A stretch of DNA of 64,000 nt from Qipengyuania sp. GTDB lineage: Bacteria; Pseudomonadota; Alphaproteobacteria; Sphingomonadales; Sphingomonadaceae. The notes under the pieces were generated by a model, which was not told the origin of the DNA, searched no databases, and saw only the letters and a program-made list of their open reading frames with translations. The stretch lies in NCBI GenBank assembly GCA_048268145.1, contig JBLWWC010000003.1:1522-65521 (forward strand), in the 5' to 3' direction. Position numbers and translations under genes: made by a program. Below are positions 4,847 through 27,565 of the stretch, piece after piece. Each line of letters starts with the position of its first letter. Position 1 is the first letter of the stretch.

Positions 4847-5737
4847 TTACCGCTGGCGGCGATCGAGCACGAGACGGCGATAGGCGCGCCAGCAGGCCGA
4901 TTTCGCCCAATTGCCTTGCGGCCAGCGGCGCGGCGGGCGGGGCGACAGGCCGAGTTTGCGCACCGTGCCATTGAAGCATCGCGCACCGGCTTCGTCATAA
5001 CTCCAGTCACTGCGCCAGGTGATCGACAAGGAGATGGAGCTTTCCGGCCCGTTGCGGACGAAATGCGGGGCCATCACCGGCACGAAGACTGCCTCGCCCG
5101 GCCCGATGGCATATTCGGTTCCAAACGCCATCAGATCGTCGTGCCACGGCAATTCGCGCGGGCCGCCCAAATGATAGCTTTCATGCACGATGTCGGGCGC
5201 AAAGCGGCTGTCCCCGGCGGGAAACTGGGTCATCACCTTGCTGCCCTTCAATTGCAGCAAGATGTTGTGCTCCGGGTCGAAATGGTAGGGCGTGACCGCA
5301 TTCGGGCTCGAAATGAACAGGAAGCCCTGCGGGGTCAGCATCGCTCCGGTTTTCGGTTCGATGGCAGGGCGTATCTCGTCCAGCAGCGCGTGCAGCAGAT
5401 CGCGATAGTGATCGACCTGTTCGATGTTCTTGAGCACCGCCCAGCTATTGCTGGTCGCGATGTGGCGGATGGTGTCGCCAATGGACATGCCGGTGGAGCC
5501 GGGCTTGCCATCGACGCCGACGGGCAGATCGCCGCGATTGTACTCCATTGAACTCTCGGGCAACCGTTCGGCCAGATCTGCCAGCGCATCGAGGTCGAGC
5601 CGCTCATCGCGCTCAAGCCGGTGGTGGAGGACATGCGGTGTTTCCGGGTAAGCTGCGGCAAAGCGCGCGCGCGCTTCGGCGGGAAAAACCTCGCCCTGCG
5701 GCGCCACCGTGGCAAGTGAGGGATCGTGGGCGGTCAT
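4847..5737 (-). CDS. JmjC/cupin-like Fe(II)/2-oxoglutarate oxygenase
   Basis: TPYHFDPEHNILLQLKGSK (HxD plus Lys) and GEAVFVPVMAPHFVRN (distal His); ATGA overlap with upstream GNAT. Confidence 0.8.
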   Translation of the reverse strand: MTAHDPSLATVAPQGEVFPAEARARFAAAYPETPHVLHHRLERDERLDLDALADLAERLPESSMEYNRGDLPVGVDGKPGSTGMSIGDTIRHIATSNSWAVLKNIEQVDHYRDLLHALLDEIRPAIEPKTGAMLTPQGFLFISSPNAVTPYHFDPEHNILLQLKGSKVMTQFPAGDSRFAPDIVHESYHLGGPRELPWHDDLMAFGTEYAIGPGEAVFVPVMAPHFVRNGPESSISLSITWRSDWSYDEAGARCFNGTVRKLGLSPRPPRRWPQGNWAKSACWRAYRRLVLDRRQR

Positions 5738-6909
5738 GCGCGTTTCTCCGAACGGTGAACCTCGGTGGCGGTCAGGGCCGCGCCGATCGTGCGTCGGACC
5801 ATACCGCCAATGGCAACCGAAACCTTCACGATTTCGCGCCGGTCGAGCCAGATATGGTCGATCATCGGGTGGCCGGGCGCAGCGCAGCTATCGGACAGGA
5901 CGATGTCGGCGCGCTCAAGCAGAGCGAGGTTTTCGACCTGCAACAGCACACCGGGCGACAGCTTCGCCAGGCTTTCGTCGTAAGTCGTCTTGAAGGCGAA
6001 GCTGAGCGGCGGGGCGATGAAATTGCACAGCATCGCAATCGGCCTGCCATCGAGGTGGAAGGCCAGCCGTTCCAGCCGGTTGTCGCGCGCGGCCCCGGCA
6101 AGGCTTTCGCGGAACATCGCGGTGGTCGCCGGTGCACAGCCGAGGGCAGAGCCTTGCGAACCCTTCCAGCCGGCAGCCTCAAGAGCGAGGAAATCGTCAA
6201 CCCATTCGTCCAGCCCCGCATTGTCGTTCTGGCGGGTAAAGCGCAGTTCACCGAGCTCTTCGAGCCGTCGGCGCTTGCGGGCAAGTTCCTTGCGGCGTTT
6301 GCGTTCGAGACAGCGCTGGAGGTGCTCGTCCGGGGTTGGGCCGCTGAGCAGCGCGGCGCGCTGCTCGCTGGCGACGACGCGCATGGGGCGATTGGCCCGG
6401 GCGCATACCGCACGCAGGGCCGGAAGCGAAGCACCATCGGCTGGCAGGGCGGGCAAATGGGTGAACAGGCTGGCGCGTTCATGCGTGTCGCACCATTCGA
6501 GCAGTGCGCTCCAGAAACGTTCGGCATGGCCGGGCGCGATCAGAGGCTCGCCGCAGAAGAGGTTGGGATGCGACCATCCGGCTAGGTGGGGCAGGCGGTG
6601 GCCGTGATAGCGGACACTGCGCCACAGCGGCATGAGTGCGACCAGTCGGCCATCTTCCACTAGTGTGGCGAGGCGAACCCGCCGACCAGTATCGAATTGC
6701 TCGAGCGAGGGGGCGAGAAACCAGCGCTCGAAAAACGGGTTGGGCATCTCGGCAGCGCGGGCGAGTGCGTCCCACGCGGCGTCGAAGCCCGGGCCGACGA
6801 CATCCGCCCAGGGCAGCGCAGAAAAGCCATCTTCGGCGAAGACGTGCGTTCGCATGCCTGCTTGCGCAGACACCCATTCGGGCGCGACCAGATCATCTAT
6901 ACGCGTCAC
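5734..6909 (-). CDS. GNAT-fold acyltransferase, CelD/BcsL (Acetyltransf_6)-like
   Basis: WDALARAAEMPNPFFERWF, FLALEAAGWKG, FKTTYDESLAKLSPGVLL motifs. Confidence 0.85.
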   Translation of the reverse strand: MTRIDDLVAPEWVSAQAGMRTHVFAEDGFSALPWADVVGPGFDAAWDALARAAEMPNPFFERWFLAPSLEQFDTGRRVRLATLVEDGRLVALMPLWRSVRYHGHRLPHLAGWSHPNLFCGEPLIAPGHAERFWSALLEWCDTHERASLFTHLPALPADGASLPALRAVCARANRPMRVVASEQRAALLSGPTPDEHLQRCLERKRRKELARKRRRLEELGELRFTRQNDNAGLDEWVDDFLALEAAGWKGSQGSALGCAPATTAMFRESLAGAARDNRLERLAFHLDGRPIAMLCNFIAPPLSFAFKTTYDESLAKLSPGVLLQVENLALLERADIVLSDSCAAPGHPMIDHIWLDRREIVKVSVAIGGMVRRTIGAALTATEVHRSEKRA

Positions 6910-23305: not shown

Positions 23306-23719
23306 TTAGCCGGCGTCTGCGCGCACGATCATCACATTCATCACTGCGCTGGCAATCGCCCTCTCGGCATCGTCCTGCCACGCTTCCACACTGATATTGG
23401 CGGTGCGCCTGCCCATCTTGACAATCCGCCCGCGGGCAAAGCTCGCCTCAGTCTTTCCGGCACGCAGGAACTGGACTGTCACGTTAATCGGCTTGAGGGT
23501 GGTGGTCTCCGCTTCATCGCCGAGCCGCGCGCGCAAGGCGGCATAGCCAGCCGTTTCGAGCAGGCCGCTGATCGCCCCGCCATGAAGCGCACCTGGCCGC
23601 CCCTCCAGCCGCTCGTTGAACGGTACGGTGAGCACGGGGCCATGCTCGTCCCAATGCGCCACCTCGACGCCCAGCGAACGGGCATAGGGCGTCAGCACCT
23701 CGATTTGCGGTAGCGGCAT
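23306..23719 (-). CDS. PaaI/hotdog thioesterase
   Basis: GALHGGAISGLLE hotdog motif. Confidence 0.85.
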   Translation of the reverse strand: MPLPQIEVLTPYARSLGVEVAHWDEHGPVLTVPFNERLEGRPGALHGGAISGLLETAGYAALRARLGDEAETTTLKPINVTVQFLRAGKTEASFARGRIVKMGRRTANISVEAWQDDAERAIASAVMNVMIVRADAG

Positions 23720-23724
23720 CTTCT

Positions 23725-24195
23725 TCAGTCCCCGGCCTGTTCGGTCCCCGGCATCGGCCGATTGACGTTGATGGTCATGAAAACCGCCTGCACCATCGCG
23801 ACCGGATCCTGCGGATCGCCATCATGGGCGAACCCGCGCACGAACGCTGCCGAACGCGTCAGGCGGTAACAGGTGGAGCGTCCGAAAACACTGCTGCGCG
23901 GTTTGGCGGGGCGGATGTAATCGACCCGCAGGTCCAGCGTGGCGATGGCCTGGAATTCCCCCATCCGGGTCCAGATGGCGAGGCCGCTCGCCATGTCCAT
24001 GAGGCTGACGATGGGGCCGGAGGCCAGGATCTGCGTCTCCTCCTCGCCAACGAGGTCTTCGCGCCAGGGCAGTTCCAGCTCGACCCAGTCGGGCCCGTGT
24101 TCGCGATATTGGAGGCCGAGCCAGCCATTATGGACACGTGAAGTGAGCAGCGGTGCGGCGAGCGACGGATCGAATTTGCCGGGTTGAGAAGCCAT
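23725..24195 (-). CDS. PaaI/hotdog thioesterase
   Basis: ILASGPIVSLMD, ATLDLRVDYIRPA. Confidence 0.85.
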   Translation of the reverse strand: MASQPGKFDPSLAAPLLTSRVHNGWLGLQYREHGPDWVELELPWREDLVGEEETQILASGPIVSLMDMASGLAIWTRMGEFQAIATLDLRVDYIRPAKPRSSVFGRSTCYRLTRSAAFVRGFAHDGDPQDPVAMVQAVFMTINVNRPMPGTEQAGD

Positions 24196-24326
24196 CGCGT
24201 TTCCGCCTGCCGTGCGCCGCGCCGAATTACAATATTTTAATTTCACAGCCCCTTTCCGTGCGGCCAATTCCTGTCAAGGCAAATGACGGATCACGTCGTT
24301 TGCTTTTGAAAATAGGGAGGAATTTA

Positions 24327-24491
24327 ATGAACTTGCCGAAGATCGATCTGGACCTTCTGCCCGATCTCGATGCGGTATCGGGCGTCTTCGGGAGCCTGTC
24401 GGATTTTGCCACCGCATCGGTGGATGATCGCATGCTGGTGATCATGGTTTATCTTTATGAAACCATGCCGCCTGAACGGTTGATCGGCTGA
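24327..24491 (+). CDS. 54-aa small protein, candidate precursor peptide
   Basis: Strong RBS AGGGAGG before ATG 24327; MNLPKIDLDLLPDLDAVSGVFGSLSDFATASVDDRMLVIMVYLYETMPPERLIG. Confidence 0.75.
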   Translation: MNLPKIDLDLLPDLDAVSGVFGSLSDFATASVDDRMLVIMVYLYETMPPERLIG

Positions 24492-24510
24492 GCGGAAGGT
24501 TACGCACTCG

Positions 24511-25488
24511 ATGCGAGTCGATTCCGAGATAATGGCGCTGCGGAGCGATCCGGCTTCGCAGCGCCGCATGCACGCCCGGATGGAGGCGGCCAAGCGCGAG
24601 TGGCGGGCACGCGGCGATGTCGCCGCAGTGCTGGGCGAGCTGGCCGGATATGGTGCGGGACACAGGCTCGAGCGTGCTGCAGCGCTTGGCAGCCTCGTCA
24701 ACGACCCGGACCGCGCGGGGCGGTTCGTCGCCGGGCTGGTCGAACCTATGGGGCAAGCCCTGCACGATGCACCGCTCGGCCAGATACCGTTTCGCCATCA
24801 GCTGTCGGGCGGTATCTGCGTGGTCCAGCTGGCCGAAGCCGGTCGGGCGGCATTGTCGCTCGTCACCTACGAGGGCGCGGCGCTTGCATCGGGCGGGCCC
24901 GCGCAAAGCGTGTGCTTTTCCGATGGCGAGCTGCATGAAGTCTGTCTTGCCGGAAGCGCCACTGCGCGAATGTTCGAGATAACCCGCGATGATGGCACGC
25001 GCGCGCACATTCGCAGCGAGGCGCGAACTCTCGAGGCTGGGGCCACGCTTTGCCTTGCCGGGCCGACACAAGCCAGGCTGATCGAATGCGTCGATGGGCG
25101 GCTGGTGATGTTGCGGCTTGGCAGGGGGGCTGCCGAGCCGACGCCATCGCGCGAATTCGCGCTTGAAGGCGGTGCGCTGCTGCACCGCGCCAGCGGCTCG
25201 CGCGAGGAAAGTCGTTTGGAAATGGCGATGGCGCTGCTTGGGCGGATGGGCCGCAGGGACGCCGCGCCGCAGATCGCCGCACTGGCCGGGCAGGGCGGGG
25301 CGCATCTGCGCTGGCAGGCGGTGCGCAACTGTCTTGCGCTGGACCCTGCGCGGGGATTTCACGCACTTTGCGAGCTGGCAGGGGATGGCGATGCCGCGCT
25401 CGCCGCGCAGGCCAGAGCGCTGCGTGTGCAACTGTGTGAGACCTATCCCGCACTTGGCGGAATGGAGGTCGGCACATGCCCCGCGTAA
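24511..25488 (+). CDS. Degenerate cupin-like protein with C-terminal HEAT-like repeats
   Basis: Beta-rich middle region and C-terminal LRWQAVRNCLALDPARG..L..LAGDGD..LAAQARAL; no HxH metal motif. Confidence 0.65.
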   Translation: MRVDSEIMALRSDPASQRRMHARMEAAKREWRARGDVAAVLGELAGYGAGHRLERAAALGSLVNDPDRAGRFVAGLVEPMGQALHDAPLGQIPFRHQLSGGICVVQLAEAGRAALSLVTYEGAALASGGPAQSVCFSDGELHEVCLAGSATARMFEITRDDGTRAHIRSEARTLEAGATLCLAGPTQARLIECVDGRLVMLRLGRGAAEPTPSREFALEGGALLHRASGSREESRLEMAMALLGRMGRRDAAPQIAALAGQGGAHLRWQAVRNCLALDPARGFHALCELAGDGDAALAAQARALRVQLCETYPALGGMEVGTCPA

Positions 25489-26411
25489 TTGCCTGCGAGG
25501 ACCGGCGCAGCATCGATCTCGAAACCTGTGTCGCCATGCTTGCTGAACGGGGCTTCGATCCGGCAGACGAAGGCAGCCTCGCCGCCGCATCCGGCGCGGT
25601 CAGAAAGCTGGCGAACAATCGCGCCTTTCTCGGCGATATGCTCATCGCGCAGCTTGGCGAGGGCTTTCGCGGCGCAGGCGATGGCAGCGCCTATGGCCCG
25701 CAGGCCGTCGTATTGTCCGATGTGCGCAGTGGGTGCTTCCTGCGCGCGAACATCTGGCCATCCGAGCGCGACAGCGTGTACCGGGCGAGCGGCGCGAAGG
25801 CGTTCGTCTATGGCGTGCCGCACGATCACAATTTCAGCTTTCTGACTGTTGGCTATTTCGGGCCCGGTTACGAAAGCGATTATTACGAATACGATTACGG
25901 CGCGGCGCATGGCTATGCCGGCGAACGACCGGGCCTGCGCTTCGTCGAGCGCAGCGCGCTGGAGGAGGGCAAGATTATGCTCTACCGCGCTCACCGGGAC
26001 ATCCACTCGCAATTGCCGCCGCAAGCCATGTCGGTGTCGCTCAACATCATGCATGTCGACCCGGCCCAGGGGTGGTTCGACCAGTATGGCTTCGATCTGG
26101 CAACGGGGGCGATTACGGGTGTGCTGAACCCAACCTCTACCGAGTGCTTCCTGCGCTGCGCGGTGGGGCTGGGCGGGGAAGAGGCGGTTGCGCTGGCCGC
26201 GCATTTCGGACGCCACCACCCCAGCGACCGGATGCGGCTGGCGAGCTACGAAGCGCGCGCCATGCTGGGCGGCGATGTGGACGGATTGTGGCGCGAGGCA
26301 GAGGCCAGCGGCAGCGTGATGGTGGCGAGGGAGGCAGCCAAGCGGCGGCGCGCGCTCGAAGATGTGGGCGGGGCGGCTAGCGGGCGGTCGTGCACCCGCT
26401 TGGTCGACTAG
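25476..26411 (+). CDS. Cysteine-dioxygenase-like cupin with HEAT-like tail
   Basis: PHDHNFSFLTVGYFGPGYESDYY and RDIHSQLPP..MSVSLNI (3-His pattern); GGAGG RBS inside upstream gene, 13-nt overlap. Confidence 0.75.
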   Translation: MPRVIACEDRRSIDLETCVAMLAERGFDPADEGSLAAASGAVRKLANNRAFLGDMLIAQLGEGFRGAGDGSAYGPQAVVLSDVRSGCFLRANIWPSERDSVYRASGAKAFVYGVPHDHNFSFLTVGYFGPGYESDYYEYDYGAAHGYAGERPGLRFVERSALEEGKIMLYRAHRDIHSQLPPQAMSVSLNIMHVDPAQGWFDQYGFDLATGAITGVLNPTSTECFLRCAVGLGGEEAVALAAHFGRHHPSDRMRLASYEARAMLGGDVDGLWREAEASGSVMVAREAAKRRRALEDVGGAASGRSCTRLVD

Positions 26412-26515
26412 GTGGTGACGCTTCGAGCGCGCTCGGGAATGCCGGCACGACGGGGCTCCTTGTCCGCTGGGACAATTAGGGTCCTTTGGCCTTGTTCCAA
26501 CCGGCGAAAGGCCCT

Positions 26516-26839
26516 TCAATTGCCGCCGTTTGATTTTGCAAGGTGCCCCCTGACGTCTTCGTCCAAGAACTTGTGAAAACTAACCACACCGGACTGCAGG
26601 CCACTGTTCCCGACATATTCCACACGCGAAGCTAAATAATCCATGATTGTTCGATTGATGCGTCTCATTACCGGATCTGGCCTGTCGAATGTCTGCGGAT
26701 CGAGAGGCTTTCCAAAACCCTCCAACCTGTGTTGCAACCACTCCTCGTAAACGTCGGGATGTCCCTCCCGAAAATCGTTATAAAAGGGGCGAAGATCCTC
26801 CAAATCATGTGATCTTGGAAAAGTAAGTTTCAAAGACAT
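26516..26839 (-). CDS. Orphan 107-aa hypothetical protein, low GC
   Basis: GGGAGG RBS before ATG 26839; MSLKLTFPRSHDLEDLRPFYNDFREGHPDVYEEWL...; about 50% GC. Confidence 0.65.
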   Translation of the reverse strand: MSLKLTFPRSHDLEDLRPFYNDFREGHPDVYEEWLQHRLEGFGKPLDPQTFDRPDPVMRRINRTIMDYLASRVEYVGNSGLQSGVVSFHKFLDEDVRGHLAKSNGGN

Positions 26840-27079
26840 TCGCGCCTCCCGTTTGCTTGATTGGCTATAAAAAAGCGACGCCGCGAAAGTCGTTTGCAGG
26901 ACGACTTTTGATCGAAGTCGCGATTTTGAAAATCGTCTTTCACCCTCCAGGCTGGCTGCCTTTTCTCCCCGCTTGCTGACGCTCCAGCGCGCGTGCAATG
27001 TCACCAGCATGCACGCCATTCATTCTTTTGAAAAGGATAAGGCTACGAGTTCCAAAGCCGGTGTAAGGAGCTCTAACGG

Positions 27080-27565
27080 CTAGAGCACGCCGCCCGCCAG
27101 CCGGTCGATCGCCGCTTGCAGGATGACCGCAGCGGCGTGGCTGTCGATCCGTTCGGCGCGTTTGGCGCGGCTCATATCCTGGCCGATCATCGCCGCTTCC
27201 GCGCTCGCGGTGGACCAGCGTTCGTCCCACAACAGCACGGGCAGGTCGAACGCCTCGGCAATGTTTTTGGCATAGGCGCGGCTGGCCTGAACGCGCGCGC
27301 CATCGCTGCCATCCATATTCTTCGGCAGGCCGATCACGAAGCCGCGCACGCCGCGCTGCTCCACGATTTCCCGCAATTTCCCGCTGTCCTTGCCGAACTT
27401 GCTGCGCGGGAGGGTCTTGCCTGCGGTCGCGAAACGCCAGCCTGCATCGCAAGTCGCGAGGCCAATGGTCTTGGTTCCAAGGTCGAGCGCCAGCAGCACG
27501 CCGCCATCGGGCAGCGCATCGCCGAAATCCAGCGCAGCCTCGGTTACGAGCGCGCCGCTGCCCAT
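27080..27565 (-). CDS. ruvX: Holliday junction resolvase RuvX/YqgF
   Basis: LALDLGTKTIGLA, GLPKNMDGS, WDERWST, IDSHAAAVILQ; start approximate. Confidence 0.93.
   Translation of the reverse strand: MGSGALVTEAALDFGDALPDGGVLLALDLGTKTIGLATCDAGWRFATAGKTLPRSKFGKDSGKLREIVEQRGVRGFVIGLPKNMDGSDGARVQASRAYAKNIAEAFDLPVLLWDERWSTASAEAAMIGQDMSRAKRAERIDSHAAAVILQAAIDRLAGGVL

Follow-up and report, generated by a model that had tools for sequence, protein, structure and literature searches.

Organization of the locus

The stretch of DNA considered here (the window) comprises 64,000 nt of the genome of Qipengyuania sp. (GenBank assembly GCA_048268145.1, contig JBLWWC010000003.1, positions 1,522 to 65,521 of the forward strand). 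Between positions 24327 and 26411 of the window lie three co-oriented genes of the + strand, which code for a small acidic peptide and for two proteins in which a predicted cupin barrel is followed by HEAT-like helical repeats (Table 1). The peptide gene is separated from the second gene by a gap of 19 nt, and the second and third genes overlap by 13 nt. A first-pass annotation, made from the sequence alone, had taken this trio for a candidate peptide-modification system resembling those behind peptides that are made by ribosomes and modified after translation (RiPPs). The coordinates given there, the gap and the overlap, the ribosome-binding site and the positions of the His-Asp-His motif and of the distal His of the third gene have all been confirmed on the sequence.

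Table 1. Features of the three-gene cassette and of the region upstream of it (positions of the window)
Feature	Position	Strand	Basis or location
Shine–Dalgarno sequence GGGAGG, 6 nt before the ATG of the peptide gene	24315..24320	+	Read from sequence
Peptide gene, 54 aa, MNLPKIDLDLLPDLDAVSGVFGSLSDFATASVDDRMLVIMVYLYETMPPERLIG	24327..24491	+	Open reading frame; homologues
Metal-free cupin–HEAT protein gene, 325 aa, probable pseudo-enzyme partner	24511..25488	+	AlphaFold2 model, Foldseek, no conserved His
3-His cupin–HEAT protein gene, 311 aa, putative catalytic subunit, database name "transposase"	25476..26411	+	AlphaFold2 model, Foldseek, invariant residues
H116-D117-H118 codons, cupin motif 1, two of three putative metal ligands	25821..25829	+	Invariant in alignments
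H177 codon, cupin motif 2, third putative metal ligand	26004..26006	+	Invariant; inside the invariant strand D175-x-H177-x-Q179
AT-rich conserved element ATTACAATATTTTAATTTC (likewise given as ATTACAATnnTTTAATTTC)	24226..24244	Unassigned	Intergenic region between the divergent thioesterase and peptide genes

Co-conservation of the three genes

The genes of this cassette occur together far beyond chance. In 105 loci gathered from genome searches, tblastn detected the third protein in all of them, the second protein in 99 and the peptide in 93. Inspection by eye showed the peptide gene in eight further loci (L015, L016, L019, L020, L021, L022, L023, and L080), and the last four loci without a peptide match are cut by contig ends. 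The order peptide, metal-free cupin (hereafter pseudo-cupin), cupin is kept in almost all complete loci, also in clades with as little as ~25–35% identity, and the second gene always lies directly upstream of the third. With 93 plus eight of 105 loci and a fixed order, the three genes are co-conserved, as their treatment as a single system in the first-pass annotation had presupposed. For example, Qipengyuania spongiae carries the same trio (53, 326, and 297 aa) in the same neighborhood. In a divergent set of 80 metagenome loci, the genes for the pseudo-cupin and the cupin are likewise adjacent wherever the contig permits. Both the peptide gene and the third gene are single-copy in the window's genome.

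The peptide

Judging from its codon pattern, the peptide gene is a real coding gene under purifying selection, because 61% of the single-base differences in its codons are synonymous and the entropy at third codon positions (1.50) exceeds that at first (1.07) and second positions (0.85). In addition, a Shine–Dalgarno-like core stands ahead of 93 of 96 homologous peptide genes. The peptide of the window has nine acidic and three basic residues (net charge about −6) and no Cys at all. It is made up of an acidic conserved N-terminal motif (residues 1–23), a variable linker, a block in which D33-D34 is followed, after one residue, by a hydrophobic run and by Y44-E45, and a variable tail. Among 85 distinct peptides of the Erythrobacteraceae, the clade of the window, the highest conservation is that of G22 (100%), D34 and D/E45 (99% each), P12 and L14 (98% each), P4 (95%), and Y44 (92%, His in the others); I6, D7, G19, F21, S23, D33, and M40 are the other most conserved positions, and no conserved Cys is found in these sequences. 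G19, F21, G22, and S23 close the N-terminal motif of the clade, IDLxxLPxL(D/E)TxxGΦFGS, and M40 belongs to the C-terminal core, DDxΦΦΦΦMVYΦY(D/E). Linker and tail vary within the clade. The conserved residues, the codon pattern and the conserved Shine–Dalgarno sequence thus bear out the description of a leader-like N-terminus on a genuine peptide gene. On the other hand, the suggestion that the product may stay attached to the membrane is weak for this clade, since the hydrophobic run has only ~10 residues (M36–Y44) and is flanked by D33, D34, R35, and E45.

Peptides of a related kind are found outside the Erythrobacteraceae, for example MDLFRIDIGEIADLATQVAVNGAIRVSGGMGDEMFEYLVGIAVLIYEMYPDG in other sphingomonads. 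In the 80 divergent metagenome loci, a small open reading frame preceded by a Shine–Dalgarno sequence lies upstream of the pair of larger genes. Its product shows an acidic motif of the kind (P)(D/E)L(D/E)xxVxxxG(S/A), followed by a linker that often ends in GG and by a hydrophobic end rich in Gly, Ala, Val, and Ile, and in several divergent clades a Cys is present two to three residues after the GG. The (D/E)L(D/E)xxV...G(S/A) part of the motif recurs across clades and the hydrophobic core differs by clade. In five of the 80 loci (L138, L141, L157, L167, and L172), and also in the plasmid locus L199 described below, two different peptide genes stand in tandem. A putative leader that is shared, cores that are specific to each clade and occasional multiple copies are the anatomy of precursor peptides. 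A double-glycine leader was considered for these peptides and rejected, as the G-S and GG motifs are without the hydrophobic pattern that C39 substrates have at −4, −7, and −12; L023, judged by eye, may be an exception. The peptides have no significant match to a curated family (Pfam, NCBIfam, and PADLOC for the peptide of the window; NCBIfam for nine divergent peptides).

The two cupin–HEAT proteins

The third protein is predicted with high confidence by AlphaFold2 from an alignment of 83 sequences (mean predicted local distance difference test, pLDDT, 93.2), with helices at residues 15–63, a barrel at 77–216 and helical repeats at 221–302. In Foldseek searches its best match is mercaptosuccinate dioxygenase (8vni, E 9e-8), and each of the top 10 matches (E 9e-8 to 2e-5) is a thiol dioxygenase. 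Further matches include 3-mercaptopropionate dioxygenase (6xb9), the thiol dioxygenase of Pseudomonas aeruginosa (4tlf), rat cysteine dioxygenase (CDO), the plant cysteine oxidase (PCO) PCO4, and human cysteamine dioxygenase (ADO), and human CDO is also among the matches of the two proteins. The template modeling (TM) score to the thiol dioxygenases is about 0.6 when normalized to the target, with 13–18% identity in the structural alignments. H116, H118, and H177 are invariant in the 83 homologues, in the alignment of divergent clades and in each of the 53 sequences of a comparison between peptide classes, and F122/L123 occupy the usual position of the cupin Glu, so that a Glu ligand is missing in this protein. 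These residues support a putative 3-His metal site in a cupin of the CDO fold. The proposal of a CDO-like 3-His cupin with a helical tail, made at first from the spacing of the His residues, is therefore borne out by the model, by the Foldseek matches and by the invariance of the ligands. In fact, the conservation goes well beyond these ligands: R90, W94, D117, F120, F122, Y132, E150, Y170, R171, D175, Q179, S186, and N190 are invariant together with the three His, and the invariant residues persist in clades at 25–35% identity.

The conserved residues of the enzyme can be compared with the kind of peptide encoded next to it. Loci whose peptides have a Cys in the core (14), loci with Cys-free peptides (17) and sphingomonad loci (22) share the same conserved enzyme residues, and the peripheral positions 111 and 133 are the only ones that separate the Cys-core from the Cys-free group. 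This comparison gave no evidence of a Cys-specific active site, and it argues for a common chemistry across clades that would not be specific to Cys, because the conserved enzyme residues are the same with or without a Cys in the core.

The second protein was modeled from an alignment of 78 sequences (pLDDT 95.1) and shows the same succession of helices (5–86), barrel (95–227), and helical repeats (231–320). Its top Foldseek matches are again thiol dioxygenases (4tlf, E 5.5e-7). None of its His residues is conserved in more than 69% of the 78 homologues, and the mean column identity is 37%. It is probably a dead, metal-free paralogue of the third protein. BLASTP between the two proteins gives no match, and hhalign places residues 157–301 of the third protein collinear with residues 167–310 of the second with weak significance (E 3.5e-4, probability 37%). 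The description of the two as paired CDO-like cupin/HEAT proteins, one putatively active and one dead, is thus supported by the predicted folds of both and weakly by sequence, in agreement with what the first-pass annotation had put forward. The HEAT assignment is matched weakly in Pfam (E 0.47 for the second protein of the window and 3e-4 in a relative); the insignificant HEAT/NblB-like matches of the window's second protein are the sole Pfam or NCBIfam matches among the trio.

Databases give little access to this family. Pfam and NCBIfam contain nothing significant for any of the three proteins, the third protein having no match at E ≤ 1, and PADLOC has no match for them either. The third protein falls outside the Pfam families CDO_I (PF05995) and PCO_ADO (PF07847), and sequence searches of the PDB, with single sequences or with an 83-sequence profile, found no relevant match. 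A search of the full-text literature found no paper on such a system or family. The family itself is large: homologues of the third protein number in the thousands, and among 1.84 billion representative proteins searched with a profile (E ≤ 0.001) there were 921 clusters at 50% identity, almost all of ~300 aa. Many of the homologues in Qipengyuania, Erythrobacter, and Altererythrobacter are named "transposase" at NCBI. According to the first-pass annotation, such a name is often given to homologues of the third gene and would hide the system; the name is real, and together with the negative results in Pfam, NCBIfam, PADLOC, the PDB and the literature it does conceal it.

Genomic neighborhood in the window and its relatives

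In the window and its close relatives, the trio lies between two genes for 4HBT thioesterases (TE1 and TE2) and ruvX. The order PBP1, TE1, TE2, trio, RuvX, DUF3089 is found in 56–59 of 62 related loci. The slot can also be empty, since in one genome of the same genus (G007) RuvX and TE2 are ~120 nt apart; the cassette is therefore a dispensable accessory unit in a fixed chromosomal slot. In a sample at the level of the order, 22 of 151 genomes have the cassette, nearly all of them in the window's own family. It is rare outside this family, with two matches among the non-family genomes of 401 sampled at the level of the phylum. A candidate peptide is present in one of these two (L117). The other (L118, G341:C101:1-2900) is found in a low-GC gammaproteobacterial genome, where the pair adjoins a tRNA-like sequence seen by eye.

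Three features around the trio deserve mention. The tandem 4HBT/PaaI-type thioesterase genes (23306–24195, − strand) are divergent from it, an arrangement common to 57 of 62 loci from Erythrobacteraceae and to several from more distant sphingomonads; these genes stay in the genome that is without the trio, so that the link is probably one of synteny only. In the intergenic region, 49 of 92 loci match the strict pattern of the AT-rich element of Table 1 at ~90–104 nt upstream of the start codon of the peptide gene, and 71 of 92 have its core TTTAATT. This element is a possible promoter or operator whose tie to the cassette is uncertain. Since a genome without the trio also has a degenerate copy of it upstream of its thioesterase gene, the element would probably belong to the promoter of the thioesterase genes or to a shared divergent promoter. 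An EcfG-type promoter pattern was found upstream of the peptide gene in one of the 92 loci and a sigma-70 pattern in none, and a consensus scan of 23600–27100 for sigma-70 promoters and terminators was uninformative. Finally, a low-GC stretch (26412–27079, 48–51% against about 66% around it) separates the cupin gene from ruvX in the window and contains an open reading frame on the − strand (26516–27019) that has no Pfam match. The stretch is absent from all 62 related loci, in which ruvX directly follows the cupin gene, and it looks like a strain-specific insertion.

Exporters in divergent relatives

Exporters are part of the family elsewhere and not in the window's clade. The earlier statement that neither a protease nor an exporter is encoded locally accordingly holds for the window and the 80 closest genome loci, and fails for divergent relatives, in which exporters are adjacent. 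One example is L023, where the trio adjoins a divergent gene pair read by eye as a C39-peptidase ATP-binding cassette (ABC) exporter and HlyD; when the same exporter genes were sought in the first 105 loci, they were found in L023 alone. In L172, genes for HlyD, an ABC ATPase and a MacB/FtsX permease lie upstream, and genes for an ABC ATPase and a likely ABC-2 permease lie downstream. More complete is the cluster on the 252-kb plasmid CP013927.1 of Alteromonas stellipolaris (L199, 62882–71050), with the order Yip1, HlyD, ABC ATPase, MacB/FtsX, two peptides, pseudo-cupin, cupin, ABC ATPase, and ABC-2 permease. The two peptide genes of this cluster (positions 5588–5737 and 5836–5961 of the locus) are unannotated, and every gene of the cluster but one bears the annotation hypothetical. 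Of 39 metagenome loci with a length of 6 kb or more, six have the gene for an ABC ATPase abutting the stop codon of the cupin gene; five contain HlyD, four MacB, and three TolC.

A proposed function and its alternatives

The explanation favored here, with somewhat better than even confidence, is that the trio is an accessory cassette by which a ribosomal peptide is oxidatively modified in a leader-guided, oxygen-dependent manner. The proposal is one of a new enzyme family that acts in peptide modification. A RiPP-like reading fits the divergent relatives, with their tandem peptides and adjacent exporters, and to this extent the earlier suggestion that the pair modifies the peptide is partly supported; that the peptide is the substrate, and that any of its residues is modified, keep the rank of a suggestion. 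The two diverged paralogues would probably act as a heterodimer, and the pairing of an enzyme with a dead paralogue is familiar from other peptide-modifying systems. The conserved N-terminal motif of the peptide may dock on the fast-evolving metal-free copy, on the helical tails or on both. The other, strongly conserved copy would oxidize the hydrophobic core with O2 at an Fe(II) center bound by H116, H118, and H177. The best candidate target sites would be the Tyr/His44-Asp/Glu45 pair and Asp33-Asp34, and an oxidative reaction of the backbone is an alternative chemistry. The product might be exported by the adjacent ABC systems in the relatives that have them, and in the window's clade it might act inside the cell or leave it through an unlinked transporter. 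The chemistry is probably not classical thiol dioxygenation, and in this clade thiol dioxygenation of the peptide is excluded because the peptide has no Cys. A more specific version of this proposal can be held only tentatively, at rather less than even confidence: the cassette would represent a new RiPP class, defined by an enzyme that has the thiol-dioxygenase fold and a mononuclear 3-His cupin site and that works as a heterodimer with its metal-free paralogue, with a chemistry new for this fold in the Cys-free clade of the window. The product would be a conserved intracellular peptide, redox-active or involved in signaling, and not an antibiotic. Such a chemistry could convert the Tyr/His-Asp/Glu pair into a quinone-type or cross-linked residue, or could consist in an O2-dependent cleavage of the backbone that removes the leader without a protease.

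Several observations weigh against the modification of a precursor peptide. The scans of Pfam and NCBIfam detected neither a RiPP recognition element (RRE) nor a known RiPP enzyme family, and no protease, exporter or immunity gene lies near the cassette in the window or in its ~80 closest loci, where the neighborhood is a fixed and housekeeping one. The core of the peptide is conserved across genera in the window's clade, which is seldom so in antimicrobial RiPPs and would agree equally well with a structural or regulatory role of the peptide. The L118 pair has no recognizable upstream peptide; this locus may be an island insertion that has lost the peptide, or its peptide may be too divergent to be recognized. 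In some relatives the linked genes are those of regulators and not of exporters. In six of the 39 long metagenome loci an extracytoplasmic function (ECF) sigma factor is encoded upstream on the same strand, and in four a membrane protein stands at the position of an anti-sigma factor. In the sphingomonad locus L020, the cupin gene is directly followed by an OmpR-type gene (5931–6494, 187 aa) with a Trans_reg_C domain and an N-terminal half without Pfam match; open reading frames of 186–220 aa occupy the same position in L016, L019, and L021, their likeness to the L020 gene being one of size. Another example is a 901-aa fusion of a full cupin–HEAT module with TPR-S and adenylate/guanylate cyclase domains, found in two separate read-set assemblies (L106, 1041–3746, and L107, 1039–3744) with the pseudo-cupin gene directly upstream. 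These neighbors, and the conservation of the peptide across genera, would suit a sensory or regulatory complex in which the cupin pair senses O2, redox state or a metal, the peptide is a regulatory subunit or switch that is oxidized or bound and no precursor of a natural product, and the output passes through an ECF sigma factor, an OmpR-type regulator or a nucleotide cyclase. PCO and ADO, relatives of the cupin in fold, are themselves oxygen sensors. However, a sensor would hardly account for the tandem divergent peptides and the translationally coupled ABC exporters of other clades, regulators are also common beside biosynthetic clusters, and none is adjacent in the window or its close relatives; a sensory complex is thus regarded as unlikely, although it is the main rival of the favored explanation.

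The likeness of the third protein to the thiol dioxygenases, which are its best structural matches and whose 3-His set it keeps, raises the question of whether it is an ordinary enzyme acting on a small molecule such as 3-mercaptopropionate, cysteine or mercaptosuccinate, with the peptide and the second protein as accessory or unrelated elements. In rat CDO, Arg60, which binds the carboxylate, precedes His86 by the same 26 residues that separate R90 from H116. This explanation is nevertheless improbable, given that the third protein has no sequence match to CDO_I or PCO_ADO or, even with a profile, to a PDB chain, and that a strict link to a peptide gene and to a dead paralogue, as well as the extra HEAT tail, are not known from thiol dioxygenases. 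In addition, the positions of the Ser-His-Tyr triad appear, from their spacing to H177, to carry the invariant S186, S188, and N190 without a conserved His-x-Tyr. Improbable too is an unmodified hydrophobic peptide, bacteriocin-like or otherwise membrane-active, for which the cupin–HEAT pair would be a non-enzymatic chaperone or immunity factor. The C-termini rich in Gly, Ala, Val, and Ile, the loci with two peptides and the adjacent exporters would agree with it, but ~20 invariant residues around the putative metal site across very divergent clades favor catalysis over binding alone, and both proteins are without signal peptide or membrane segment in the models. As to the third gene being a transposase, nothing beyond the NCBI name of many homologues speaks for it. 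The protein has the fold of a cupin with helical repeats, Pfam and NCBIfam reveal in it neither a transposase or integrase domain nor one for DNA binding, and its gene is single-copy and occupies the same slot in 56–59 of 62 genomes. The name is without basis, and this explanation can be practically discounted.

Relation to known systems

Three groups of known systems resemble the cassette. The thiol dioxygenases (CDO, the 3-mercaptopropionate and mercaptosuccinate enzymes, PCO, and ADO) share with the third protein the N-terminal helices and the cupin barrel and, by sequence, the putative HxH...H pattern of three His, from which the Glu customary in cupins is absent; peptides or proteins are substrates of PCO and ADO too. 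In contrast to them, the third protein has an added C-terminal HEAT-like domain, no detectable sequence similarity to them and a second-sphere Ser-His-Tyr triad that appears to be replaced, and it is encoded with an obligatory dead paralogue and a peptide which in this clade has no thiol. Closer in genetic organization are the MNIO (DUF692) RiPP systems, for example MbnB/MbnC, TglH/TglI, and BufB/BufC of the bufferins, in which the precursor gene likewise comes before those of an iron- and O2-dependent enzyme (putative in the cassette) and of a partner thought to present the peptide. ECF sigma factors or transporters are neighbors of these systems too in some clades, and many of their loci have no dedicated protease. 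The MNIO enzymes are, however, TIM barrels with multinuclear iron, unlike the mononuclear cupin proposed here, and the partner in the cassette is a paralogue of the enzyme without an RRE or a DUF2063-type domain. Finally, L172 and L199, with two different small hydrophobic peptides flanked by a MacAB/HlyD-type exporter and an ABC-2 transporter, recall the clusters of two-peptide bacteriocins and lantibiotics, which combine export by ABC systems with immunity of the ABC-2 type. They differ in that the cassette includes neither a lanthipeptide synthetase nor any other modifying enzyme that is known, and in that the window's clade has one peptide and no transporter.

Significance

To our knowledge, the thiol-dioxygenase fold has so far been found to act on small thiols and on N-terminal Cys in oxygen sensing. 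If the proposed function is true, this fold would join the short list of iron enzymes that define RiPP classes. No curated model exists for this family of 921 clusters at 50% identity, and its members often go by the name of a transposase, which makes it invisible to genome-mining tools. The system is compact, with three genes in about 2.1 kb, and its natural variants (with or without Cys, with one or two peptides, with or without exporters) would allow a comparative study of the chemistry. The association of an enzyme with its dead paralogue would also offer a clean case in which to learn how pseudo-enzymes present substrates.

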